Positions 5,676-31,139 of a stretch of DNA of 31,139 bases are shown in pieces. The DNA lies in IMG/VR virus record IMGVR_UViG_3300028767_000071, positions 1 through 31,139 of that record; one strand, 5' to 3'. The DNA comes from a virus (lineage: Duplodnaviria > Caudoviricetes). Below the pieces are notes generated by a model. That model ran no database searches, was not told the origin of the DNA, and was given only the letters and a program-made list of their open reading frames with translations. The position numbers were made by a program, and so were the translations under genes. Every line of letters starts with the position of its first letter. Within the stretch, counting starts at the first letter, position 1.

Positions 5676-6185
5676 ATGGCATTTCTAGCAGTTGATCAAC
5701 TAGGGAATGAATACATCTTCAATAACCAACCCACTCGACTTAAAAACGGTTGGTGTTCGTTTGAACTTAATCCAATAAAGCTACCTTATGGTTCTATTTT
5801 AAGGCTTTCAGGGTTATATTTAACTTTTGAAGACGCACCCTTTGAAATGGTAACAAATAACTTTCGTCACGACGTATGTGTAGACTCTGGTTGCCGTACG
5901 TCAGAATTAAAACTAAAAACTAGAAAACGTGAAGTTGTTCAAGCAAGACAGTTTATTATGGCTTACAATAAAATTTATTTAGGGTTGTCGCTTGCTTCGG
6001 CTGCTGCTGAATTTGGAAAGGATCATGCAACTTGCTGCCACTCTATTAAAACAATCCAGAATCTTTATTCAACAAATCGTACTTATCGGGAACAGTTTAA
6101 GGATATTTTCACTAACTTTCCATTGTTGTTAAAATACAAAATCGGTGAGATGGAAAGCAATTTCAAAATTAACATCAAAGAATAA
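5676..6185 (+). CDS. protein with DnaA C-terminal-like HTH domain
   Basis: KTRKREVVQARQFIM...LSLASAAAEFGKDHATCCHS matches the DnaA domain IV pattern. Confidence 0.75.
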   Translation: MAFLAVDQLGNEYIFNNQPTRLKNGWCSFELNPIKLPYGSILRLSGLYLTFEDAPFEMVTNNFRHDVCVDSGCRTSELKLKTRKREVVQARQFIMAYNKIYLGLSLASAAAEFGKDHATCCHSIKTIQNLYSTNRTYREQFKDIFTNFPLLLKYKIGEMESNFKINIKE

Positions 6186-6212
6186 TTCACGAATATACCT
6201 TTTTGAACTAAC
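6186..6212 (+). repeat. array left-end sequence TTCACGAATATACCTTTTTGAACTAAC, copy 1
   Basis: Exact 27-bp match to 27334-27360. Confidence 0.95.
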
Positions 6213-6332
6213 ATTGTAGCATACACGCAGTAAGGGTTTAAATGGTACTTCCCTATCTGTCAGCGATAAATTTACAAGTACCTATAATGTTGGCAAACCA
6301 GTGCTACCCTTATTGCCGGGTATGCGAAGTTA
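6209..6332. repeat. attC-like hairpin H1
   Basis: TAAC..116 bp..GTTA; arms GCATACACGCAGTAAGGGT / ACCCTTATTGCCGGGTATGC. Confidence 0.85.
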
Positions 6333-6353
6333 TTGCCAGTTTACATTTCAGTC

Positions 6354-6935
6354 ATGTTTGAAGATTTAAAAGAAGATTTTATTGTCGAATTTGGAGAGGA
6401 AAACTTTAAAAAAATTGAGTCTATTTTAGACTTATTTGAAAGCGAACCTTTTTGCGATTTTGAAAAAGACGGAATTACTGTTTCGTGTAGCCGTGAAAAG
6501 ATAAATCAACTGCAAGAAAATGTATGTGTTTCTATTTCGTGCGATGATTTTGACATTGAATTACTTTATGAAAATGGGATCAACGCAGGAACCAGATTGA
6601 ATGAGTATAGAATAAATCCAGCATCTTCATTTGTTAATGATAAACGCGAATACGAAGTAATTACAGGTATTGAATTGGATATTGATGCTATAGATAGATG
6701 GAGTGCAATGACTGGTAAAGAATATTCACTCCAAAAAGCTGAATTTATGCTTATCAATAATCGTGATTCAATTTTGAAATTAATCAAAAATCAAAATTAC
6801 GATAATTATGTAACTGGTGGAGGCACGACAAAGACAGACCGCTACTATGATCAGAAAAAGTCTGAATTAAACGAACGTGGTCTTTTTTGGAAAGTCAAAA
6901 CGCGAACAGAAGTAACCACCGCGAACTTTTTTTAA
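6354..6935 (+). CDS. cassette 1 cargo: acidic hypothetical protein
   Basis: ATG 6354 preferred to TTG 6333; flanked by IR GTTATTGCCAGTTTA (6329) / TAAATTGGCAATAAC (6933-6947). Confidence 0.8.
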   Translation: MFEDLKEDFIVEFGEENFKKIESILDLFESEPFCDFEKDGITVSCSREKINQLQENVCVSISCDDFDIELLYENGINAGTRLNEYRINPASSFVNDKREYEVITGIELDIDAIDRWSAMTGKEYSLQKAEFMLINNRDSILKLIKNQNYDNYVTGGGTTKTDRYYDQKKSELNERGLFWKVKTRTEVTTANFF

Positions 6936-6943
6936 ATTGGCAA

Positions 6944-7067
6944 TAACGGTTCGTGTATGGGTAGTGTGGGAGTACGAAGCACTACCCTATCGAATTACAA
7001 ATAACTTAAATACGAGATACAATGATTGAACAACCACAAAAACCCACATTACCTATACACGGTGTTA
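6944..7067. repeat. attC-like hairpin H2
   Basis: TAAC..116 bp..GTTA; 19-bp stem CGTGTATGGGTAGTGTGGG / CCCACATTACCTATACACG with 2 G.T pairs. Confidence 0.9.
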
Positions 7068-8140
7068 TGCACAGGTTTTCTTATCGTTGGACTTTAAAAG
7101 ATGCCAACTTTACAAAGGATAAAGGTAAAGTGTTTAGTTGCTTTGCTTGTGGAGGTGGCTCAACTATGGGTTATAAATTGGCTGGTTTTGATGTGATAGG
7201 ATGCAATGAAATTGACCCTAAAATGATTGAAGCATACAAAGCAAACCACAACCCTAAATATGCTTTTTTAGAACCAATACAGACCTTTAAAATGCGTGAA
7301 GATTTGCCGCAGGAACTTTATGAACTGGATATATTGGACGGTTCACCACCTTGTAGTAGTTTTTCAATGGCTGGTAACCGCGAAAAAGACTGGGGCAAAG
7401 ATAAAGTTTTTAGAGAAGGTCAGGCGATGCAGGTTTTAGATACTTTGTTTTTTGATTTTATTGATTTGGCTAAGAAATTACAGCCAAAAGTTGTGGTTGC
7501 TGAAAATGTAAAAGGCTTGCTTTTAGGCGATGCAATACAGTATGTGAGACAAATATACCGTGAATTTGATTTGGCTGGTTATTATTGCCAACATTGGTTA
7601 TTAGATGCTTCAAAAATGGGTGTACCACAAAGGCGCGAAAGGGTATTTTTTATTGCATTGCGTAAAGATTTGGCAAAACCTTTTTTAAAGCAAATGAACT
7701 TGTTTGATATTTTGCCAGAAATAAAACTGGAATTTAATGAACCTGAAATATGTTTTAAAGAATTTGCAGATTACGAAGGCGAAAATATTACAGAATATGC
7801 AAAAAAAGCATGGGATAACCGAAAATATGGGGATAACAATATTGCAGAAAGTAAAGCAAGATGTGGAATGAAAGTAAGCGATATGAATACAGGCTATGTT
7901 TATGAAGATAAAGTATGCCAAACATTAACTGCAAAAGGTAGGCATGGAAGTTTATTATTTTCAAAACCTATTAGACTTTCAAAGGCTGAATTTTGCAATG
8001 TTGGAACATACCCACAAGATTATGATTTTGCAAAAACTGGATGGGGCTATTTAATTGGAATGAGTGTTCCACCAGTAATGACTGCAAACATAGCGACTGA
8101 AATTTATTTGCAATGGCTCTCAAAGTTGGCACTGTCTTAA
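7022..8140 (+). CDS. cassette 2 cargo: C5-cytosine DNA methyltransferase
   Basis: FACGGG (motif I), SPPC (IV), ENV (VI), QRRER (VIII); start 7022 or 7067; IR GTTATGCACAGGTTT (7064) / AAACTTGTGCATAAC (8139-8153). Confidence 0.95.
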   Translation: MIEQPQKPTLPIHGVMHRFSYRWTLKDANFTKDKGKVFSCFACGGGSTMGYKLAGFDVIGCNEIDPKMIEAYKANHNPKYAFLEPIQTFKMREDLPQELYELDILDGSPPCSSFSMAGNREKDWGKDKVFREGQAMQVLDTLFFDFIDLAKKLQPKVVVAENVKGLLLGDAIQYVRQIYREFDLAGYYCQHWLLDASKMGVPQRRERVFFIALRKDLAKPFLKQMNLFDILPEIKLEFNEPEICFKEFADYEGENITEYAKKAWDNRKYGDNNIAESKARCGMKVSDMNTGYVYEDKVCQTLTAKGRHGSLLFSKPIRLSKAEFCNVGTYPQDYDFAKTGWGYLIGMSVPPVMTANIATEIYLQWLSKLALS

Positions 8141-8187
8141 ACTTGTGCATAACTTGTTTATATCAACAGTTTAATAAATTAAACCAT

Positions 8188-8421
8188 ATGCAACTTACTG
8201 AGTACGAACAAAAAGCAATTCATAAACTCGGACAGGCTATACACGAAGGCCGGTGGAGTAATGCTGGGTTGGTTGAACTTATTAAACTGGAAGGAGATTA
8301 TCTAAATTTAAAGACGATACCCAGATATGCAAAATCTGTTGGAAAGACTTATCCGGGTGTTGTTAAAACGAGAGAAATAACAAATTTATTTGATGTTAAG
8401 TGGATAATTGACAACGATTAG
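8188..8421 (+). CDS. small putative HTH/excisionase-like protein at array right end
   Basis: 77 aa from ATG 8188; paralog of 28710-28943; LKTIPRYAKSVGKTYPGV looks like an HTH. Confidence 0.7.
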   Translation: MQLTEYEQKAIHKLGQAIHEGRWSNAGLVELIKLEGDYLNLKTIPRYAKSVGKTYPGVVKTREITNLFDVKWIIDND

Positions 8422-8464
8422 AAAGGTTCAACAATGGCCGTTTTCAACCTATTAAATTTTCAAC

Positions 8465-14191: not shown

Positions 14192-14265
14192 TAACGGGCA
14201 AAGTTTATACGGGCTGCAAAGCTCGAAAACCACGGTTGCCTGACTTGCCGGGTTAGCCAAAGTTA
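14192..14265. repeat. truncated attC-like element H3
   Basis: TAAC..66 bp..GTTA; right half resembles H6, left arm missing. Confidence 0.6.
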
Positions 14266-14304
14266 TTTGCCGTATTTCATTACTAATCACTAAAATAAAT
14301 AAAG

Positions 14305-14652
14305 ATGTCAGTAAAAATTTATTCAAGTTTCAACATGGGTGGGATGCCAACCCTTGAATATTCGATTAACATTAATGGGATTTCAATTGGTATTAAAAAA
14401 GAAGATTTTGACTCTTTAGTTAAAGAACTAGGAACTTCAATATCTGAAGATTTGGAAAAAGCAAAGTCAGTGAAAGAAAGCTACTGGAAAAATGTAGAGA
14501 AGTTGCAAGAACTAAGGAAAGAAATAATATCTATTTTCTGGGATGGAGAGCCTGATGACGATTATCTATTTAAAAAAGAGTCAAAGGAAATTGATCAAGA
14601 AAAGCTTTTCGAGATTTTGGAAAAGCACAATCGCTTCTTAGGATTCGAATAA
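14305..14652 (+). CDS. cassette 3 cargo: hypothetical protein
   Basis: IR GTTATTTGCCGTATT (14262) / AATATGGCATATAAC (14651-14665). Confidence 0.8.
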   Translation: MSVKIYSSFNMGGMPTLEYSININGISIGIKKEDFDSLVKELGTSISEDLEKAKSVKESYWKNVEKLQELRKEIISIFWDGEPDDDYLFKKESKEIDQEKLFEILEKHNRFLGFE

Positions 14653-14661
14653 TATGGCATA

Positions 14662-14786
14662 TAACGTAGGAAGCTACACGCAGTTTGGGATTACGAGCGA
14701 AAGCCTGTCAAGCCCCGACAGCGTAAATACGAAAAGAAAGCCTTGAATAACTTTCATACGCCCAAATTGACGGGTAGCTGAAGTTA
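14662..14786. repeat. attC-like hairpin H4
   Basis: TAAC..117 bp..GTTA; arms GCTACACGCAGTTTGGG / CCCAAATTGACGGGTAGC. Confidence 0.85.
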
Positions 14787-14838
14787 GTGGTTAGTGCTTT
14801 CATAGTCAAATATTTAAAACTAATTAATAATCAATAAA

Positions 14839-15228
14839 ATGTCAACAGAAACACATCAAATTACAGTCGCAAAATGCGAAGAAGAAGAACTCGACAATGT
14901 AAGAACGTATCTACAAGAACTTGAACAAGTTGTCAACGAGAATGACGGTTACGATGAAGATGATTCTGAAGTGAATAAAGAAATTGCTGATGTAGCAAGA
15001 AAATATCCAAACAGAGCTTTCATCGTTCCATTGAATTTAGGAATCCTTCTCGACAACTACCAGGATAAAGACTCAGATATTTTGAAGCATCCAAAGTGGA
15101 TAATGAATCTTTTCAATGTCCTCGAAGAAATTGACGAATATCTGTCAAGTAACCCGAAAAACTATGTCGGTAGCGGGTCAATTCTGCACACTAAAATAAA
15201 GAACTGTCTGTCGAAAGATGCGAAATAG
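14839..15228 (+). CDS. cassette 4 cargo: acidic hypothetical protein
   Basis: IR GTTAGTGGTTAGTGCT (14783) / AGCATTACCACTAAC (15227-15241). Confidence 0.8.
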   Translation: MSTETHQITVAKCEEEELDNVRTYLQELEQVVNENDGYDEDDSEVNKEIADVARKYPNRAFIVPLNLGILLDNYQDKDSDILKHPKWIMNLFNVLEEIDEYLSSNPKNYVGSGSILHTKIKNCLSKDAK

Positions 15229-15237
15229 CATTACCAC

Positions 15238-15361
15238 TAACGTTTCCGCTATGCGTAGTGCGGGATTACGTGGTACGCACTATCAAACTACGCAAAGCCT
15301 ACGAGCGAGGCAGGACGCTCGATATTACGAATAACCCCGCATTACGTATGAGCGGGTGTTG
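15238..15361. repeat. attC-like hairpin H5
   Basis: TAAC..116 bp..GTTG; arms CGCTATGCGTAGTGCGGG / CCCGCATTACGTATGAGCG. Confidence 0.9.
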
Positions 15362-15385
15362 TACGCCGTTTTTATTCTTAAAACT

Positions 15386-17569
15386 ATGGATTATACTCAA
15401 TTTTTAAACACAAAACACAAAAGCATTATTCATTCAGGATTTGAAATAAATGAAACTAAATTAAATCCGATGCTTTTCGATTTTCAGAGGTTTACCGTAA
15501 AACGTGCTTTAAAGGCTGGTAAATATGCGATTTTTGCTGATACTGGACAAGGCAAAACTCCAATGCAGTTAGATATTGCGAACCAAGTTTTTAAATACAC
15601 AAATGAACCAGTTTTAATTTTAGCACCTTTGGCAGTAACAGGGCAAACAATTGAACAGGGATTGAAATTTGGAATAGAAGTAAAAAGGCTTTCGGGAAAT
15701 ATACAGATAGCCAATTATGAGCAAATTGATAACATAGATTGTAGTTTGTACGGTTGCATAATTTTAGATGAAAGTTCGATTTTAAAAAATGAAACAGGAA
15801 AATATAGAAATTTACTTATTGAAAAGTTCAAAAAAACACCTTACAAATACTGCTTTTCAGCTACACCAAGCCCAAACGACCCTATGGAATTAGGAAACCA
15901 TGCAGAATTTTTAGACGTTATGGGATTTTCAGAAATGCTTGCAATGTATTTTGTACATGATGCTGGAGAAACGCAAAAATGGAGACTTAAAGGGCATGCA
16001 GTTGAACGATTCTATGAGTTTGTTAGTTCATGGGCAATTATGTATTCGCACCCAAGGGATATAGGATTTGAAATGAATGGATTTGATTTGCCCGAACTTT
16101 CGATAATTGAAAAACAGGTTGCAACTACATTACCGGAAGGTATGCTATTTTCGGGATTGGCTGTAAATGCTACCGATTACAATTCAAGTTTACGAGAAAC
16201 AGAATTAGAACGCATTAACCAAACTTTAGAAATTGTTAAAAGTATTGGATTTAACGAACCGATAATTATTTGGACAAAGCAAAATGATGAAGCAAAAAAC
16301 ATATACAACCATTTAAAATTGCTTGGTTATGATTGCCGAAACGTGCAAGGTTCAGATTCAAATGAAAAGAAAGAAGCTGATTTATTAGGATTCGGGCATA
16401 ATGAATTTCAAATACTTATTACAAAACAATCAATTGCAAGTCAAGGATTGAATTACCAAAATTGCGCTTATCAGATATTTAATTCAGTTGATTTTAGCTT
16501 TGAACAAAGCTACCAAGCCATGAGGCGTTCATGGAGGTTTGGACAAAAAAGAAAAGTAACATGCTGGATGATAACAACCGACAGAATGATAAATGTTATT
16601 AAAATACAGCAAGATAAACACCTTTCATTTAAAACTATGCAAAGTGAAATGACGAAGGCAGTTAATAAAAATTTACTTAACCAAATAACAACTAAAAACA
16701 TGAATAGTGAAGATGTTAAAACAGAATTTTACCATTTAATGCGTGGGGATTGTGTTGAAAAATCAAAAGAAGTTGAAGAAAATAAATCGGATTTGATTAT
16801 ATTTTCGCCTCCATTTAGCGAACTTTACACATATTCGAGTCATGTTGAAGATATGGGCAATTCAGCAAACTATAACCAATTCGAGCAACATTTTAAATTC
16901 TTAATTCCTGAACTAAAAAGGATTTTAAAACCTGGGCGTATTTGTGCTATTCATTGCATGGATTTACCAATACAAAAAGGAAAAGAAGGATATATTGGTT
17001 TAAGGGACTTTTCGGGAATGTTGATTAAATGGTTTCAGGATTGCGGATTTATTTATCACAGTCGGGCAACAATATGGAAAGACCCTGTAATTGAAATGCA
17101 GCGAACTAAAGCACTTGGATTGCTGCATAAACAAGTAAAAAAAGATAGTGTAATGAGCCGTGTTGGAATACCTGACTATATTTTATTTTTTAGAAATGAA
17201 GGCGAAAATACAATACCAATTACAAATACAAATATACCAGTTGATTTGTGGCAAAAAATAGCTTCGCCAGTTTGGTATGATATTGATTATTCAAGAACTC
17301 TGAATTATAGAGAAGGTAGGGCGCAAGATGACGAGAAACATATTTGCCCGCTTCAACTTGATACGATTGAAAGAGTAATATTGCTTTATTCAAATGAAGG
17401 CGAAACGATTTTCAGCCCTTTCGGAGGAATTGGCAGCGAAGGTTATCAAGCGTTGAAAATGAACCGTAAAAGCATTTCAATTGAGCTTAAAGAAAGCTAT
17501 TTTGAATTGAATAAACGAAACCACAATGCAGCCAAAGAAGAAAAAGGACAATTAAAATTAGCATGGTAG
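15386..17569 (+). CDS. cassette 5 cargo: SNF2-like helicase fused to an N4/N6 (beta-class) DNA methyltransferase
   Basis: DTGQGKT, DESS, SATP, RRSWRFGQ; then FSPPF and SPFGGIGS; IR GTTGTACGCCGTTT (15358) / AAATGGCGTACAAC (17594-17607). Confidence 0.9.
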   Translation: MDYTQFLNTKHKSIIHSGFEINETKLNPMLFDFQRFTVKRALKAGKYAIFADTGQGKTPMQLDIANQVFKYTNEPVLILAPLAVTGQTIEQGLKFGIEVKRLSGNIQIANYEQIDNIDCSLYGCIILDESSILKNETGKYRNLLIEKFKKTPYKYCFSATPSPNDPMELGNHAEFLDVMGFSEMLAMYFVHDAGETQKWRLKGHAVERFYEFVSSWAIMYSHPRDIGFEMNGFDLPELSIIEKQVATTLPEGMLFSGLAVNATDYNSSLRETELERINQTLEIVKSIGFNEPIIIWTKQNDEAKNIYNHLKLLGYDCRNVQGSDSNEKKEADLLGFGHNEFQILITKQSIASQGLNYQNCAYQIFNSVDFSFEQSYQAMRRSWRFGQKRKVTCWMITTDRMINVIKIQQDKHLSFKTMQSEMTKAVNKNLLNQITTKNMNSEDVKTEFYHLMRGDCVEKSKEVEENKSDLIIFSPPFSELYTYSSHVEDMGNSANYNQFEQHFKFLIPELKRILKPGRICAIHCMDLPIQKGKEGYIGLRDFSGMLIKWFQDCGFIYHSRATIWKDPVIEMQRTKALGLLHKQVKKDSVMSRVGIPDYILFFRNEGENTIPITNTNIPVDLWQKIASPVWYDIDYSRTLNYREGRAQDDEKHICPLQLDTIERVILLYSNEGETIFSPFGGIGSEGYQALKMNRKSISIELKESYFELNKRNHNAAKEEKGQLKLAW

Positions 17570-17651
17570 AATGCTAAATCGAAGCACGTCTTTAAATGGC
17601 GTACAACTTGTAAATATCCGCAACTAAATAGTCAAAATACCAATAAATTTA

Positions 17652-25331: not shown

Positions 25332-26009
25332 TTAGTTAAATATTAGTTCTACCCTCATAGGTAGCGGATTAGGTGCAAAACCTTCTATTAGCACTGTTAA
25401 ACCATTTCCTACAACTCCCGTATAAGCAGTTCCACGATCAAAGCTCAACATACGTTCAGCCGAACCGTTGATTTCAAATACTTTTATATCAACTATCTTT
25501 CTTCCGGTTAAATTATGAGTTACAAGTAAGTTGTAAGTATCATCAACCTCCAATGTCCATCCGGTAGGGTAGTCTGTTGTTTCAATTGCGGCGGATATTC
25601 TGGTTGCAACACTTCCAGAAGATGAAGTAAAGTTAATAGTATAAGGATTTTGTTTAAGTTTTAATAAGTCTTGAATAATTATATAGAGGGCGTTTGCAAA
25701 TCCCATAACTTCTGCGAGTGCATCCTCTACATTTTCAGCGTCAAAAATTCCGGCCAAATCAGCAAGCGTTACATCTTCTGCCTTGACGGTTGCAGGAAAT
25801 GTAACAGGTTCTAATGTTGTACAATCTGCTTTAAACCAATAAAGTTGATCAACAATAATTAAAGGCATAAATTTATGTCTTAATCCTATGTCAATTCCCG
25901 CCAACGCCTCAGCCTCCGAAGCCCACGGAACATTGTTATTTAGATATGCTTCCTGGATTGGTCTTCCGGTAGTTGATTTAAAACCTATGTCAATTGGTAT
26001 TCCTATCAT
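25332..26009 (-). CDS. putative tail/fibre protein
   Basis: AENVEDALAEV resembles phage fibre helical motifs. Confidence 0.75.
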   Translation of the reverse strand: MIGIPIDIGFKSTTGRPIQEAYLNNNVPWASEAEALAGIDIGLRHKFMPLIIVDQLYWFKADCTTLEPVTFPATVKAEDVTLADLAGIFDAENVEDALAEVMGFANALYIIIQDLLKLKQNPYTINFTSSSGSVATRISAAIETTDYPTGWTLEVDDTYNLLVTHNLTGRKIVDIKVFEINGSAERMLSFDRGTAYTGVVGNGLTVLIEGFAPNPLPMRVELIFN

Positions 26010-26026
26010 TGCTTAAAATTTATAGC

Positions 26027-27238
26027 TTAAAATTTATAGGTTAAAGTTAATAATGTTGCTGGTTCAGGTGCATAAGTTATAGGACAAACAAAAGTGTAAA
26101 TGTTCATTAATACACTGTTTGATCCAAAAGTAAAAGTCGCCTGTGTTTTTTCAAATGCACTCATAAGATCGTAAACGTTCCACATTAAAATACTTGATAG
26201 TTCCCCGAATGATGCAGGATAAGCAAAACAGTTTCGGGTTCCAAGTTCGTTATAATACTGGATTGTTGTATCTTCTTTAACGGCTAATAACTCAGTCATT
26301 GCCTTGACTTCTGATTCATAAGGCGGGTTATTTGTCACAGCACCGACATACATTTTAGTAGTGATATCCGGAATAATCGGATTTGATTCAATGATACCTA
26401 AATTATCAACATTAATACCGATAGCGTTCTTTTGTGATAGCTTCAGGGTTGCCTGAAAAGATGTTGAGTTTCCAAATAAAGTAGGGTCTATTTCACTTTT
26501 CTTAATATACTGAATACTATTAACTGTAAATAAATCCAAATTGCTTACCATCCCTATTTTAGCTATCATGTAATCCGGCACTGCTGCAATTTTCAATACT
26601 TTTCCTGTGTAGTATGATGCTGAAAGAATAGTATTGCTTTGTGAACCTTCGAGCACTTCTGATTTATCAATGTCGTTTACTTCTACATCCATCGCCTCGA
26701 TATAAAAATCAAGATAATTCCCGGTATTTGCCAATACAGACCAATCTATGAATCTATTATCTAAGTCTGATTCAATCCTATCAAGGTTTGAATATTTTAT
26801 GTATTTGATAGTTCCTTTGTTTATCTGTTCTGTCAAATCTGTGACTAAAACAGGTTCGCTGGTTAATACATCTGAACCCTGTATAGCGGTAAAATAGATA
26901 TGTTTGTCGAAGTAGTCAGAATCTAAAGTAACAACAAAATTAGTATAATACCTCATATTTGTTGATCCGTAATGCGAAGTATAACCAGCCGAAATACTTT
27001 CAATTTGTGTGATTATAGGAAGTTTATAAAATGATTTAAGTGTAATTGTCGCGTCTGTATCTGATTCAAATTGCAAGTAAAGTACATGGTTTTTATTAAA
27101 CTTTTGAAAATATGGAATTATCAAATTATTAGAGTGTTTTCGATCCGCATGTAGTGTATTCCACATATTTGGAAATTCAGTCGGATAGGTTGCCAACTTT
27201 TTAAATGTGACGCTATTTAATATTGAACTTGATATCAT
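26027..27238 (-). CDS. putative tail protein
   Basis: 403 aa in the late operon. Confidence 0.75.
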   Translation of the reverse strand: MISSSILNSVTFKKLATYPTEFPNMWNTLHADRKHSNNLIIPYFQKFNKNHVLYLQFESDTDATITLKSFYKLPIITQIESISAGYTSHYGSTNMRYYTNFVVTLDSDYFDKHIYFTAIQGSDVLTSEPVLVTDLTEQINKGTIKYIKYSNLDRIESDLDNRFIDWSVLANTGNYLDFYIEAMDVEVNDIDKSEVLEGSQSNTILSASYYTGKVLKIAAVPDYMIAKIGMVSNLDLFTVNSIQYIKKSEIDPTLFGNSTSFQATLKLSQKNAIGINVDNLGIIESNPIIPDITTKMYVGAVTNNPPYESEVKAMTELLAVKEDTTIQYYNELGTRNCFAYPASFGELSSILMWNVYDLMSAFEKTQATFTFGSNSVLMNIYTFVCPITYAPEPATLLTLTYKF

Positions 27239-27333
27239 TATCGAATGTTTTCACAAATTTATAAAATGTTTTCAAACATACGTTTATATTTGATAGTTAT
27301 TTTTATTGGTAGTAAATTGCAGACTTAAAATTC

Positions 27334-27360
27334 TTCACGAATATACCTTTTTGAACTAAC
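27334..27360 (+). repeat. array left-end sequence, copy 2
   Basis: Exact 27-bp match to 6186-6212. Confidence 0.95.
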
Positions 27361-27484
27361 GCTCGAGTGCTATGTGCAGGGCTGGATTTCGGGCGGTGTC
27401 CGTTATTTGTCAGCGATGCAGCCCGGGCGGAAAGGTAAGGCTCGAAAATCAGAACTGCCAGACTTGACACATAGCATCAAGTTA
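27357..27484. repeat. attC-like hairpin H6
   Basis: TAAC..120 bp..GTTA; arms TGCTATGTGCAGGGCTGG / CCAGACTTGACACATAGCA. Confidence 0.85.
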
Positions 27485-27512
27485 TTTGCCGTTTTTAATT
27501 AAATCCAATACG

Positions 27513-27887
27513 ATGAAACAAATACAATTCAAAGACATTTCAGTCAAAATTTATACAGATGCAGTCGAATATACTAACGACTGGTTTGGAATGCCTGAAG
27601 GCGCAATCTTAGACAAAAGTTCTGTTCCTGAAAGTGCGGGAATGGCAGATATTATAGGAAAAGAAATTGCAATTTTTACTACAAAACTTTGCTCTTTCGA
27701 CGACTTGTTATCTACCGTTGCTCACGAATTAGGACACTTGGTAGAAAATGGGTTTAAAAAGAATCCACCACAAAAACCACGATACGAAAAACGTCACGAA
27801 CTAAAAGCAGAACATTATGAGTCTTTCACAATTGATTCATATAGACTGTCACGCCAGATTTACGGACTCACGTTCAGCGAGCTTTAA
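27513..27887 (+). CDS. cassette 6 cargo: small HExxH zinc-metallopeptidase-like protein
   Basis: TVAHELGH plus a downstream E; IR GTTATTTGCCGTTTT (27481) / AAAATGGCAATATAAC (27886-27901). Confidence 0.75.
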   Translation: MKQIQFKDISVKIYTDAVEYTNDWFGMPEGAILDKSSVPESAGMADIIGKEIAIFTTKLCSFDDLLSTVAHELGHLVENGFKKNPPQKPRYEKRHELKAEHYESFTIDSYRLSRQIYGLTFSEL

Positions 27888-27897
27888 AATGGCAATA

Positions 27898-28021
27898 TAA
27901 CGGTGGTGGTATGAAATCGGTTGGGATTTCGAAGTACAACCATGTCAAGTTACAAAACACTTGCTACGGGCTACCAAGTTTGACAAACCACTAAAACCCA
28001 ACTGTTTTATACCACGTGTTA
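27898..28021. repeat. attC-like hairpin H7
   Basis: TAAC..116 bp..GTTA; arms GTGGTATGAAATCGGTTGGG / CCCAACTGTTTTATACCAC. Confidence 0.9.
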
Positions 28022-28058
28022 TACACAGGCATTTATTTAAAATTCAAATAATTACAAA

Positions 28059-28655
28059 ATGAAAACAATTAAAAACGACTATTGTATAAGACAATTTGTA
28101 AGCAGCGATACATTAAGACCTGCAATGACTAAAGTAAATTTACAGGATGGATATTTATATTCTACCGATGCCCATATAGTTGGGAAAATAAAAGCGGATT
28201 TGTGTGTTCAAAATTATACTGCTATTGAAAAATACCCAAATGCAGAAAAAGTAATTGAGGAACATGAATCGGTTGAAAAGAAAACAGTAAGCGTTGATAC
28301 TCTTTTTAACGACTTAATGAAAATTGAGTGCTGTTTTAAACCTAAAATGATTGATTGCGACAAATGCGATGGTGATGGCGTATATGTTTGCGACCATTGT
28401 AATTCTGAATGTGATTGCAAAGAATGTGGTGGAACTGGGCAAGTAGCAGGCAAAGAACTTGAATTAACAAGCGAACATGATTGCGTTTTATTTAATAAAA
28501 AATACAAACTGAATTATTTGGATTTAATTATTAAAACCGCAGTTTATACAGGCGTTAAAGAGATTGAAATTTCAAACGGTACTCACGAAACTTCGGTAAC
28601 TATTTTCACGGTTGGCGATTTCACTATTTTATTAATGCCGTGCTATCGTAGGTAG
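28059..28655 (+). CDS. cassette 7 cargo: beta-clamp-like protein with inserted CxxCxGxG zinc finger
   Basis: DTLRPAMTKV...STDAH, KYPN and C-terminal LLMP resemble DnaN; CDKCDGDG, CDHC, CKECGGTG; IR GTTATACACAGGCAT (28018) / ATGCTTGTGTATAAC (28663-28677). Confidence 0.7.
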   Translation: MKTIKNDYCIRQFVSSDTLRPAMTKVNLQDGYLYSTDAHIVGKIKADLCVQNYTAIEKYPNAEKVIEEHESVEKKTVSVDTLFNDLMKIECCFKPKMIDCDKCDGDGVYVCDHCNSECDCKECGGTGQVAGKELELTSEHDCVLFNKKYKLNYLDLIIKTAVYTGVKEIEISNGTHETSVTIFTVGDFTILLMPCYRR

Positions 28656-28709
28656 ACTCTTTATGCTTGTGTATAACTTATAAATATCAACAGTTTAAAA
28701 AATTAAACT

Positions 28710-28943
28710 ATGTGCCAATTATCATAATATGAAAAACTTGCTTTACACAAATTGGGTGAAAGTATTCATAAAGGTAAATGGAGCAACGAAGGTTTGGTTA
28801 AACTTATTGAACTGGGTTCAGACTATCTTAATCCACTTTCTATTCAGGAATATGCAGACAGTAGGAAAATAAGCTATCAGGCAGCAAGAAAGCATAAACA
28901 AACTATTTTATTAAGACAAAAATTTATTATTGACAATGATTAG
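28710..28943 (+). pseudogene. paralog of 8188-8421 with in-frame TAA at 28725-28727
   Basis: MCQLS*YEKLALHKLGESIHKGKWSNEGLV aligns with MQLTEYEQKAIHKLGQAIHEGRWSNAGLV; both end IIDND. Confidence 0.8.
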
Positions 28944-28970
28944 AAAGGTTCACATAGGGCCGTTGTTTAA

Positions 28971-31139
28971 CTACACTACAATAGGTTTGTATTTTTCAAC
29001 TATTGTTATTTCAGCTTCATCCTTACCGATTGACATATCAATATTATATAAATAACCTTGTACCGAATTACCGTCTATATCTATTCCGAAATCCATCCAA
29101 CCATACAAATTATCTTGAAGAACCTGTAAATCTGCATAAATAAACATGCAAGTAACTTTGTGCTTCATAGGTAAAATTATAGGATCGGATAATGTAGAAA
29201 CTGGTATATCCTGATTTTCAGTAATCGCATATTCATCAAAACCGGACTGAGGGGTTCCCAGTGTTCTTAAGTTTTGTTGCTTGTCTGATGTTTGAAACTT
29301 CAATGTAGTACCGGAAAAATACGGTTTTTCGAGTGCAGACTTTAAATTAGGTTGACGCTTCAACATTCGCGAAGGTGTAAAGTATCTATTTAATAAATCT
29401 TCACGAAAAACGCTTGATTCTTTCAGTATCGTAATATTTTCGTCTCGTTCTGGTTTCCATTCATATCCATCCGCCTGAGTCTTAGTAATGAAAATATCAG
29501 AATCTTGCTTAGTATCGGTTGTGTCAATCGGCGTTGCTAAACTTGAAAGTATTCCTTTTGTGTCACCTCTGTAAGATGCAATATTTTCTAATTTGGTAGC
29601 AGTATTCAGTATTGTAGTTCTTTCAATTGTCGTGTTTGGTTCTGCAAGTCCGTTAATTTCAAGATACTCATATTTATCAAAACCTGATTTAATGTTACTA
29701 GGTGCGTATTCAATCATAACCTGTGACTCAATATCATATTTATTGAATCTAGATTTAAGTGGCGGGTTAAATATTATTTCATCTTCATCAGCACTTTTAA
29801 AGAAGTCTGAATATTTTTCAATTCTTAATCTTAGTGTTCCTTCAATTATCTCAAATGAATAACCTAGACCCCATATAGCACTAGCAGTCTTAAACAGGTC
29901 TTTGAAATTGACAGCAAGCGGTAAATCAGCAAGTGTTAACCCCCGTAAGTTTAAACCATTTTGTATATGTGCAAAAGACAATTGATTTTCGGTCAAATAT
30001 TTTACACCATCTGCATAACTTAAATTCTGACGGCCAAAAAAATCAGAATAAAAAGGATATTGAGTGTCAAAAATGTGTTGTGATAATCTTTCAAAAGTCT
30101 CGTAAATTGGCCAACCTTCAACTTTTCGCGCTGGCGAAGTGATAATGTCCTGAGAAAATGAAATCATACTTTCGTCACTACTGTCGCTATAAAATCCGGC
30201 TTTTATTCCTGAAATATCACCAGTTTTTACAACTAATCGCAAACTTTGACCTTTTTTCAAGTCAATAGTTGTCGAATCGTCTATTAATAGGTCTTCGGTA
30301 TCATTGCCGAAAGTAGCTAGTTCGATTTCATCAAAAATAACCTCTGCAAGATCGGAAACGACAAACATCAACGTCCACGGTGCAGTAGGGTTATTATCGT
30401 TAGTAATCCAAAAATGGAAAGTATATTTTACCGTCAATGTCCTATCAAACTCTGAACTTTCAAGTATTTTTGGTACTGCGGAGATATTTATAATTCTGTT
30501 TGTAAACTTAACGGCTTGAACATCTCCGACAAAGTCGTTTTTCTGAACGTCAAAAGGAAGTGAGGCATAACAATTGAATCCTTTTACGCGGGGCAAATCG
30601 TAAAGTATTCCATTTTGAACGGGTGTTTTTAGTTCGGCATAAAATCGCTGGTTAGTTGCCTGGTAATTTATGAATTTTTTATCTCCAAGTGGTCTATCTA
30701 AAATATTATAATCGCCTATTGAAACAAGTTTATTCAAGTCAACGTTAGTATCCTGACGTTGATCCAGTTTAGTTTGCATCGAACTATTAACGGCTTTTAC
30801 CCTAATTCCAAAAGAGAACCCTCCAATTTTAACTTTCTGATAGAAATTAAAGTCAATGTTATAGGTAGATGGAAATTCAATGTATTTTCTGCCTTTTTCG
30901 GGGTCAACAAAATCAAACTCTTTCCACCAATACTGCACTAATGTACATTTTGCATTAAATCCAAAAGTCATATATAAATCCTTAAGCATTTTTGCAGCAT
31001 TTCCGACAAACGTCAATGTATCGGCGTTGGATGAAACGAATACACCTCCAGCTTCTAAGTCACGTTTGATATTGATCTTTCCAGATGCCCACTCACATGG
31101 TTCTGTGTCGCAAATTAATTCTTCAGTATTACTTATCAG
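28971..31139 (-). CDS. large putative tail protein, 5' end outside the window
   Basis: Frame remains open from 31016 to the window edge; late-operon context. Confidence 0.8.
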   Translation of the reverse strand: MISNTEELICDTEPCEWASGKINIKRDLEAGGVFVSSNADTLTFVGNAAKMLKDLYMTFGFNAKCTLVQYWWKEFDFVDPEKGRKYIEFPSTYNIDFNFYQKVKIGGFSFGIRVKAVNSSMQTKLDQRQDTNVDLNKLVSIGDYNILDRPLGDKKFINYQATNQRFYAELKTPVQNGILYDLPRVKGFNCYASLPFDVQKNDFVGDVQAVKFTNRIINISAVPKILESSEFDRTLTVKYTFHFWITNDNNPTAPWTLMFVVSDLAEVIFDEIELATFGNDTEDLLIDDSTTIDLKKGQSLRLVVKTGDISGIKAGFYSDSSDESMISFSQDIITSPARKVEGWPIYETFERLSQHIFDTQYPFYSDFFGRQNLSYADGVKYLTENQLSFAHIQNGLNLRGLTLADLPLAVNFKDLFKTASAIWGLGYSFEIIEGTLRLRIEKYSDFFKSADEDEIIFNPPLKSRFNKYDIESQVMIEYAPSNIKSGFDKYEYLEINGLAEPNTTIERTTILNTATKLENIASYRGDTKGILSSLATPIDTTDTKQDSDIFITKTQADGYEWKPERDENITILKESSVFREDLLNRYFTPSRMLKRQPNLKSALEKPYFSGTTLKFQTSDKQQNLRTLGTPQSGFDEYAITENQDIPVSTLSDPIILPMKHKVTCMFIYADLQVLQDNLYGWMDFGIDIDGNSVQGYLYNIDMSIGKDEAEITIVEKYKPIVV

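Follow-up and report, generated by a model that had tools for sequence, protein, structure and literature searches.

A putative integrase-less, integron-like cassette dock in a phage tail operon and its possible spread by general recombination

The window analyzed here is a 31,139-nucleotide stretch of the Caudoviricetes record IMGVR_UViG_3300028767_000071, a phage fragment whose genes include RecT, a YqaJ exonuclease, NinG, helicases, an endolysin, and a virion protein. It carries three arrays of gene cassettes with hairpin sites, and the third of these (array 3) lies antisense between two genes of the tail operon. We lean toward reading this array as an integron-like capture dock that lacks an integrase, has the reverse of the usual polarity, and was copied within the phage lineage by general recombination rather than moved as a transposon. 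A preliminary description had proposed a mobile platform of ~320 bp; that the dock occurs at different loci has held up, its supposedly defined and conserved ends have not, and the route by which it relocated we infer from the features laid out below.

Array 3 is a real insertion in the tail operon. It is flanked by a downstream late or tail-module gene of 403 aa (26027 to 27238, minus strand) and by an upstream virion structural gene (phrog_15220; 28971 to 31139, minus strand) that extends past the end of the window and encodes 740 aa in G005, a 47,965-bp, 93%-complete record of this phage that is 100% identical to the window where compared. The 403-aa gene has 115 homologues, and an alignment of 32 of them yielded 17 nonself viral loci (two are the ends of one contig and two are near-identical), and in 16 of the 17 the two tail genes overlap or lie at most 47 nt apart; the exception, L050, has 3.1 kb of other same-strand genes between them, with no hairpin. 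The small gene that closes array 3 was absent from the 16 tail-related records (2 complete, the rest fragments), while the same query hit five of five positives. No relative of the phage above 70% identity was available, and the array-3 junctions were placed from relatives of 62 to 68% identity. Since these junction alignments with empty relatives reveal a duplication of the 3' end of the tail gene, the insert probably spans ~27309 to 28980 and so exceeds the block shared with array 1, which had earlier been taken for its limits, by ~25 bp on the left and 9 bp on the right. The two copies, one repeating the tail gene's last ~11 codons (27278 to 27308) and the other forming its coding 3' end (28981 to 29011), are identical at 22 of 31 positions, a level unreached in 400 mononucleotide shuffles, 400 dinucleotide-block shuffles, and 587 random windows. 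No short exact target duplication accompanies the insert, but this decayed 31-bp one does; around array 1 there is no target duplication, the best repeat there (17/31) being matched by 152 of 200 shuffles. The operon had been described as split without the breaking of a gene, and the frame of the tail gene is intact, but its stop has been displaced past the duplicated segment: the product ends in KYKPIVV, whereas in the closest empty relatives, L041 and L052, it ends in KY.

It is extremely improbable that the duplicated platform is an assembly chimera. The support for the insert does consist of assembled peat-metagenome contigs rather than raw reads, some possibly from the source sample. The two left blocks, however, are separated by 21,148 bp in G005, the same spacing as in the window, both small genes occur in one 51,582-bp metagenome contig (L062 / L073, which may share its sample with G005), and the 27 bp that make up the longest exact shared stretch are short for a misjoin. 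Among 24 sequencing runs listed, 8 were flagged as a possible source, and 4 unflagged runs were compared as contigs, covering the array-3 junctions only; run X10 crosses the left junction (25500 to 28014) with zero differences and run X17 crosses the right one (28802 to 29237), and neither was flagged. A joint that skips the insert was not seen in runs X17, X23, and X24, whose patchy coverage (~0.6 of words) makes them uninformative on its absence. By hand calculation, the small-gene coordinates in L062 / L073 suggest that a genome of ~51.3 kb is circularly permuted there with respect to G005.

Arrays 1 and 3 share an exact left end, as first noticed in the preliminary description: positions 6186 to 6212 and 27334 to 27360 (plus strand) are the same 27 bp, the longest exact direct repeat of the window (30 shuffles give 14 to 18 bp). 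This block ends in the TAAC that joins the first hairpin and is possibly the decayed 3' half of a hairpin site. The right parts of the two arrays (8137 to 8442 and 28661 to 28964) are likewise homologous: a stretch of 167 nt aligns at 70.7% and one of 39 nt at 84.6%, GATTAGAAAGGTTCA is matched exactly, and GGCCGTT has the same 5-nt offset in both. The cargo between these ends differs, comprising a 196-aa protein of unknown function and a C5 methylase in array 1 and proteins of 124 and 198 aa, both of unknown function, in array 3. Array 1 begins directly after a stop codon (6183 to 6185), and the shared right block of array 3 reaches as far as 28971, where it overlaps the convergent tail gene's stop codon. 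This post-stop block (28938 to 28971, plus strand; 8416 to 8448 in array 1) resembles by eye a cassette 5' leader (GTT...GCCGTT). Both arrays contain the small gene, as reported before, but the array-3 copy (28710 to 28943, plus strand) has an in-frame TAA at codon 6 and, since G005 has the same stop, is a pseudogene of the 77-aa family. The two copies are 58% identical in nucleotides and 51% in amino acids, no closer than random members of the family.

Read from the left on the plus strand, array 3 consists of a first attC-like hairpin site (TAAC...GTT; 27357 to 27483), a 124-aa cassette gene with no family match and an HExxH motif (27513 to 27887), a second attC-like site (27898 to 28020) that is 70% identical to the array-1 site at 6944 to 7066, a 198-aa cassette gene (28059 to 28655) bounded by a 9/9 inverted pair, GTTATACAC/GTGTATAAC, and a terminal, attI-like docking half-site made of TAAC, 5 nt, and (A/T)ATAT (28669 to 28690). 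A 16-bp palindrome, GTTTAA-N4-TTAAAC (28693 to 28708), lies just 5' of the small gene's start codon and is likely an operator. The 198-aa protein contains CxxC-rich repeats, its sole match is phrog_37414 (of unknown function), and its N terminus may resemble a sliding-clamp domain.

The conserved unit of ~270 bp, comprising half-site, palindrome, and small gene, occurs at ~40 other phage or prophage loci. These came from protein and DNA-pattern scans that left 40 nonself loci after exact duplicates were dropped, with a few close pairs remaining. Upstream of the small gene the order is TAAC, five bases, an (A/T)ATAT box, and a GTTYAA-N4-TTRAAC palindrome; at least four of the six palindrome arm pairs are present in 24 of 34 protein-found loci, and that of L027, missed by the script, is visible on inspection. 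Among the 33 loci that have 1 kb or more of flank, 28 have hairpins no farther than 3 kb upstream of the small gene. With the att hidden Markov model (HMM) alone, which was trained in part on sites upstream of small genes, hairpins are upstream in 23 of 33 loci and downstream in 3 of 35. The DNA pattern by itself added 7 loci that the protein had missed, and all 6 with upstream flank have hairpins there.

The earlier idea of a platform that spreads between intergenic sites would have suffered had the unit always sat at one locus, and it does not: the tail site is empty in 16 of 17 related loci, and the small gene is found at mostly unrelated loci. Downstream neighbors are mostly unrelated (5 similar pairs among 64 proteins) and include terminase, head protease, Erf, SbcC-like, and NinG genes, and some docks are convergent to their neighbor. 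One marker gene follows the dock in L013 but precedes the array in L069, and a DnaA_C-like gene is directly upstream in the window and in L011 and downstream in L003 and L068. Unrelated neighbors and marker genes that switch sides together argue that the dock is not tied to one locus, although NinG-like and DnaA_C-like neighbors do recur among docks. The small gene was found in 1 of 401 genomes of the phylum (the seed) and in 6 of 335 genomes of the family, its prophage relatives being in Prolixibacteraceae and other Bacteroidota genomes; the protein family comprises 274 clusters at 50% identity, and its look-alikes in the Atlas are mostly viral. Among annotated phages the small protein had no match, and the tail protein had one weak match.

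At 8 of the 40 loci (L030, L077, L078, L079, L102, L107, L114, and L128) the small gene is broken or lost, which together with array 3 suggests that it is dispensable for an existing array. A stop falls on the same conserved glutamate in two unrelated loci (28725 to 28727 of the window and codon 5 in L114), and the small gene of L107 has an internal deletion that keeps only its start and end. In another family member, P0011, the first half resembles the array-1 protein and the second half the array-3 protein, so dock interiors can be mosaic. L019 (724 to 3550) is a three-cassette dock that starts at the stop of a 205-aa gene and whose small-gene end overlaps the start of the terminase large subunit, and L005 (3938 to 9314) holds a distant family member with no palindrome, many hairpins, one of them downstream, and two near-identical short sites.

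The hairpin sites have the hallmarks of cassette boundaries. AAC and GTT are invariant in 39 aligned sites, and the 9-mers bounding cassettes are mostly complementary at 8 to 9 of 9 positions across the gene, compared with only 1 to 5 of 6 across the hairpin. Because arrays start with a hairpin and end in the half-site, the unit is a hairpin together with its downstream gene. When six window sites were scanned on both strands, the sense strand folded better in all six; it also did so in 38 of 41 sites of a set that is biased, having been chosen on that strand. Run X24 contains part of the 198-aa cassette at 97% identity, and exactly after position 28677 this piece continues into a different att-like sequence (one contig, depth 3.8). 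The earlier proposal that the platform collects cassettes is borne out by this junction and by the inverted bounding 9-mers. The three arrays of the window hold 2, 3, and 2 hairpins with no integrase nearby, which places them among clusters of attC sites lacking an integron integrase (CALINs).

The small gene occupies the slot that a ~270-aa Xer-like recombinase fills in host arrays. A search of 4 host genomes found L093, in which an array is followed by a similar half-site and then by such a recombinase, which scores 75.5 bits on TIGR02249 against a cut-off of 265. Among the 30 best fetched relatives of this recombinase (from the 335 genomes), the top 7 group closer, and of these 5 have same-strand arrays upstream and 2 have <250 nt of flank; the remaining 23 have no upstream hairpin. 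The half-site motif recurs upstream of the Xer-like recombinases of L130 to L135, and the half-site of L132 starts exactly as does that of the small-gene locus L077. G005 itself encodes no tyrosine recombinase in the 93% of the genome that it represents (controls, 14/14).

Other recombinases stand near such sites in different arrangements. Eight loci (L138, L143, L145, L147, L148, L153, L156, and L159) hold tyrosine recombinases of ~320 to 540 aa in Prolixibacteraceae, in a second layout with att-like hairpins downstream on the opposite strand. In L087 (388 to 1700) and L091 (1217 to 2019) a hairpin is followed by GTTGAACTAAA and then by a tyrosine recombinase; next in L087 is a CxxC-rich open reading frame (ORF), a putative IS91-like transposase, and the unit is possibly a cassette with a recombinase-transposase pair. 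The att end of this L087/L091 unit resembles the 27-mer of the window.

The 77-aa protein is predicted to be a homodimeric winged helix. An AlphaFold model built from 119 sequences has a predicted local distance difference test score (pLDDT) of 97 and a layout of two N-terminal helices followed by strand-helix-helix-strand-strand. No solved or predicted structure matched at an E value of ≤0.001, and the C-terminal fold matches are weak: a viral "Excisionase" structure superposes with a root mean square deviation (rmsd) of 1.8 over 42 columns (probability, 0.98; E value, 0.22) and P2 Cox with an rmsd of 1.9 over 46 columns (E value, 2.1). One of the 119 members matches HTH_17/MerR, weakly, and the protein belongs to no Pfam family. 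Prediction as two copies scored 0.88 compared with 0.00 for the best control; 20 of 30 solved pairs attain this mark, as does 1 of 23 single chains. Contacts agreed at 98% between homodimer runs (pLDDT, 92), with an interface mostly of residues 1 to 46 that leaves the helix-turn-helix free. The predicted dimer would suit the palindrome as its operator, which it may bind.

The end sequences were sought in viral contigs, genome contigs, and the 335 family genomes, and the metagenome collection was scanned with the small protein only. The 27-bp block and GATTAGAAAGGTTCA...GGCCGTT...AAC, which the preliminary description had regarded as the conserved ends of a ~320-bp element, were found in no other phage or genome searched. 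The exact 27-mer matched 5 loci in viral contigs, all 100% identical to this phage; a 21-mer matched once in genome contigs, within an unrelated chromosomal region and judged to be chance; a degenerate 19-mer gave 8 loci, of which 5 are self and 3 lack a hairpin or small gene; and the left end was absent from all 335 family genomes even when up to 3 mismatches were allowed. Three loci matched the right-end pattern, and each of them is self. The left termini of 16 relatives match the 27-mer at 6 to 15 of 27 positions; these were picked by the att HMM, as chain walks stop early at degenerate sites, and some are possibly internal. L003, the closest relative of the array-1 small gene (79% nucleotide identity), has different ends. 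Beyond the stop, the window and its relatives have no sequence in common except GTTCA. Confined as they are to this phage, the shared ends are likely not those of a transposon.

Copying by short-homology recombination is our somewhat favored account of how the dock moved, because its ends are private to this phage, extra flank was carried along, the tail gene's end is duplicated, and RecT and YqaJ are present. At array 1, little of the intergenic DNA next to the DnaA_C-like and NinG genes lies outside the shared blocks, which suggests that this array was the donor. The cassette unit is a hairpin plus gene bounded by inverted 9-mers and joined at TAAC, and the arrays, lying upstream of the half-site, have a polarity opposite to that of classical integrons. 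In the proposed scheme, new cassettes would enter at the half-site, catalyzed in trans by an Xer-like recombinase that is likely borrowed from the host or another phage, while the small-protein dimer is predicted to bind the palindrome and either repress its own gene or steer the recombinase. The dock would then have reached the tail site via short homology, duplicating ~31 bp and bringing flanks from the array-1 locus, with the phage-encoded RecT and YqaJ-type exonuclease serving the copying, and interiors would have been exchanged between phages afterwards.

Several observations weigh against this account. The exact 27-mer suggests a recent copy or functional constraint, whereas the 58% identity of the small genes and the 71% identity of the flanking duplication suggest an old event, and reconciling the two requires an interior exchange that was not observed. 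The excisionase fold match is weak (E value, 0.22), 5 of 33 loci have no upstream hairpin, and a recombinase could be encoded in the missing part of G005. An empty array-1 site was not found: NinG occurs in 0 of the 16 tail-related records and a DnaA_C-like gene, distantly, in 3 of them, and no locus contained both flanks of any dock.

A different mechanism, which we regard as unlikely, would make the dock a super-cassette that an Xer-like recombinase excises with its cassettes and inserts at a secondary TAAC, the shared blocks being decayed site remnants. It would resemble the secondary (GWT/attG) insertion of integron cassettes described in the available text of bioRxiv 2022.09.11.507474. 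In 6 of 16 relatives (no null was computed), the neighboring gene's stop codon supplies the leftmost TAAC, and two such genes are homologous to noncassette phage genes; at the small-gene stop, however, TAAC is not enriched (14% of 236 other stops have it, compared with 5 of 26 here), and AAC occurs within 15 nt of the stop in 50% versus 48%. In both window copies YAAC closes the shared right block and GTTCA lies 4 nt past the stop, as GTTCA also does in L004 and L066. The 27-mer also resembles the att 3' end plus GTTGAACTAA of L091, with a local score of 15 that was reached by 0 of 200 shuffles, but this resemblance was found post hoc. Site-specific insertion alone, moreover, makes neither a 31-bp duplication nor ~25 plus 9 bp of extra flank.

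We think it rather less probable still that the dock is a ~320-bp nonautonomous element with dedicated ends from an unsampled subfamily, whose small protein acts as an excisionase-like directionality factor. Its ends (100% over 27 bp and 15 bp exact) are more conserved than its interior (58%), as functional termini would be, and the C-terminal 42 residues superpose on viral excisionase-type folds (E value, 0.22). Yet the same ends are found in none of the viral contigs, genome contigs, or family genomes outside this phage, and ~40 other docks do without them; no short exact target duplication is present, the insert is wider than the shared block, and no transposase family was found among the 40 ORFs of the window, the only sequence scanned for transposases. 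A 9/12 imperfect inverted repeat (6196 to 6207 versus 8416 to 8427) and TTCA at both ends, seen by eye, would suit such an element, but the repeat is plausible by chance and is not among the longest inverted repeats listed. We give very little credence to the view that no platform moved at all and that arrays nucleate separately, with the half-site and its small, autoregulated repressor gene being just a frequent terminal passenger that has no capture role. Array 2 does have a half-site without a small gene, array 3 and 8 of the 40 other loci have a gene that is disrupted or missing, and integron cassettes are reported to insert outside att sites (in the same available preprint text); this would leave the exact 27-bp and right blocks of arrays 1 and 3 unexplained, and the unit is almost always last in the array, in the recombinase's slot.

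Copying of the dock into the tail operon would also have placed it antisense to late genes. A TAnnTTTG motif, the Bacteroides −7 consensus according to the accessible text of PMC7366714, lies on the minus strand at 27254 to 27261, directed toward the downstream tail gene, and recurs in the empty loci L041, L042, and L052 (3 of 17 empty loci, both closest ones included). Another match, on the plus strand at 27285 to 27292, points into array 3. From these motif matches we infer that the pair may be working divergent promoters; the antisense insert would be tolerated because a promoter-like motif in the tail intergenic region is situated on its downstream side. The tail intergenic segment from 27245 to 27275 additionally has a 10-bp direct repeat, AATGTTTTCA, occurring twice 21 bp apart, and two minus-strand TAnnTTTG motifs.

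The other two arrays of the window lie on the plus strand. Array 1 (6186 to 8448), between a DnaA_C-domain gene and NinG, comprises the 27-bp block, hairpins at 6209 to 6331 and 6944 to 7066, the 196-aa gene, the C5 DNA methylase, a half-site ending at 8153, the palindrome (8169 to 8184), an intact 77-aa gene (8188 to 8421), and the right block. The methylase frame (7022 to 8140) can start at an ATG within the upstream hairpin, and att sequence may be translated as an N-terminal extension of the enzyme; a 73%-identical methylase likewise follows a hairpin in L021 (12200 to 13402). Array 2 (14192 to 17618) has three hairpin sites and three cassette genes, the last a 737-aa helicase-methylase fusion, and ends in a terminal half-site at 17607 (TACAAC, then TTGTAAATATC) with no palindrome, small gene, or shared ends.

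Integron arrays are thought to be anchored to their integrase, with integrase-less arrays being remnants or off-target products. Here a conserved dock with a predicted regulator and no recombinase recurs at dozens of unrelated phage loci, giving Bacteroidota phages a testable route to several hotspots of accessory genes such as DNA methylases, and supplying parts for a cassette system of reversed polarity: half-site, hairpins, candidate recombinase, and candidate operator-binding protein. A bolder reading, which we hold only tentatively and consider doubtful, is that the dock is a portable attI satellite of Bacteroidota phages, free of any integrase: ~270 bp with a dimeric regulator of its own, it would be mobilized to new intergenic sites, even antisense within structural operons, would found a cassette array at each of them, and would steer a host Xer-like recombinase by means of the small protein. 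If true, it would be a self-seeding gene-capture hotspot with a directionality factor for an integron-like system. In the literature searched, which includes few subscription papers, neither this dock nor an Xer-linked system of reversed polarity was found described.

In canonical integrons, attI lies upstream of the cassette genes and the bottom strand folds. The docks share with integrons single-gene cassettes, complementary 9-mers, an AAC/GTT core, hairpins of 80 to 120 nt that fold better on one strand, a putative nonhairpin docking half-site at one end, and, in host versions, an adjacent tyrosine recombinase. They differ in that each hairpin moves together with the gene that follows it, the better-folding strand is the sense strand, and the cassette genes are oriented toward the dock, and in that the ~270-aa Xer-like recombinase, far under the IntI cut-off, is replaced by a 77-aa gene and palindrome. 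Of the features that define a classical integron, attC-type hairpins with bounding boxes are present, whereas IntI beside attI and the canonical polarity are absent; a conserved nonhairpin half-site, putatively attI-like, recurs in recombinase-linked arrays. Integron cassette recombination uses the bottom strand, according to the available portions of PMC9892861 and PMC8618304, and the latter review counts Bacteroidota among the integron-bearing phyla.

The closest phage counterparts are the CALINs of the partly available PMC9892861, including that of Polaribacter phage P12002L, which, like the docks, are integrase-less clusters of attC-like sites with DNA methyltransferase cassettes in phage genomes; one P12002L site recombined with attI1 via IntI1. 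The available text of that work describes no half-site, palindrome, small regulator, recurring dock, or antisense tail-operon insert. Insertion of cassettes at minimal genomic cores (attG/GWT), which may seed small arrays or single attC sites lacking an integron integrase (SALINs), is likewise similar, in that the relatives' arrays frequently start at a TAAC formed by a stop codon; as presented in the accessible part of bioRxiv 10.1101/2022.09.11.507474, it moves cassettes rather than a dock plus regulator and leaves the shared ends and 31-bp duplication unaccounted for. In Riemerella anatipestifer, genes integrate with a ~140-bp attC-like stem-loop and no recombinase identified (available text of PMC13148043); that species belongs to Bacteroidota, and the site is a chromosomal resistance island. 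Miniature inverted-repeat transposable elements (MITEs) resemble the docks as short units at several intergenic sites, but docks have neither the termini conserved across copies nor the short exact target-site duplication of MITE-like elements or insertion sequences, and no cognate transposase is among the 40 window ORFs. With excisionase/Cox factors the small protein may share a predicted winged-helix C-terminal half, on weak fold matches, and differs in having an extra N-terminal predicted dimerization hairpin. The dock would work like an integron docking site, yet it is neither a classical integron nor an insertion sequence.

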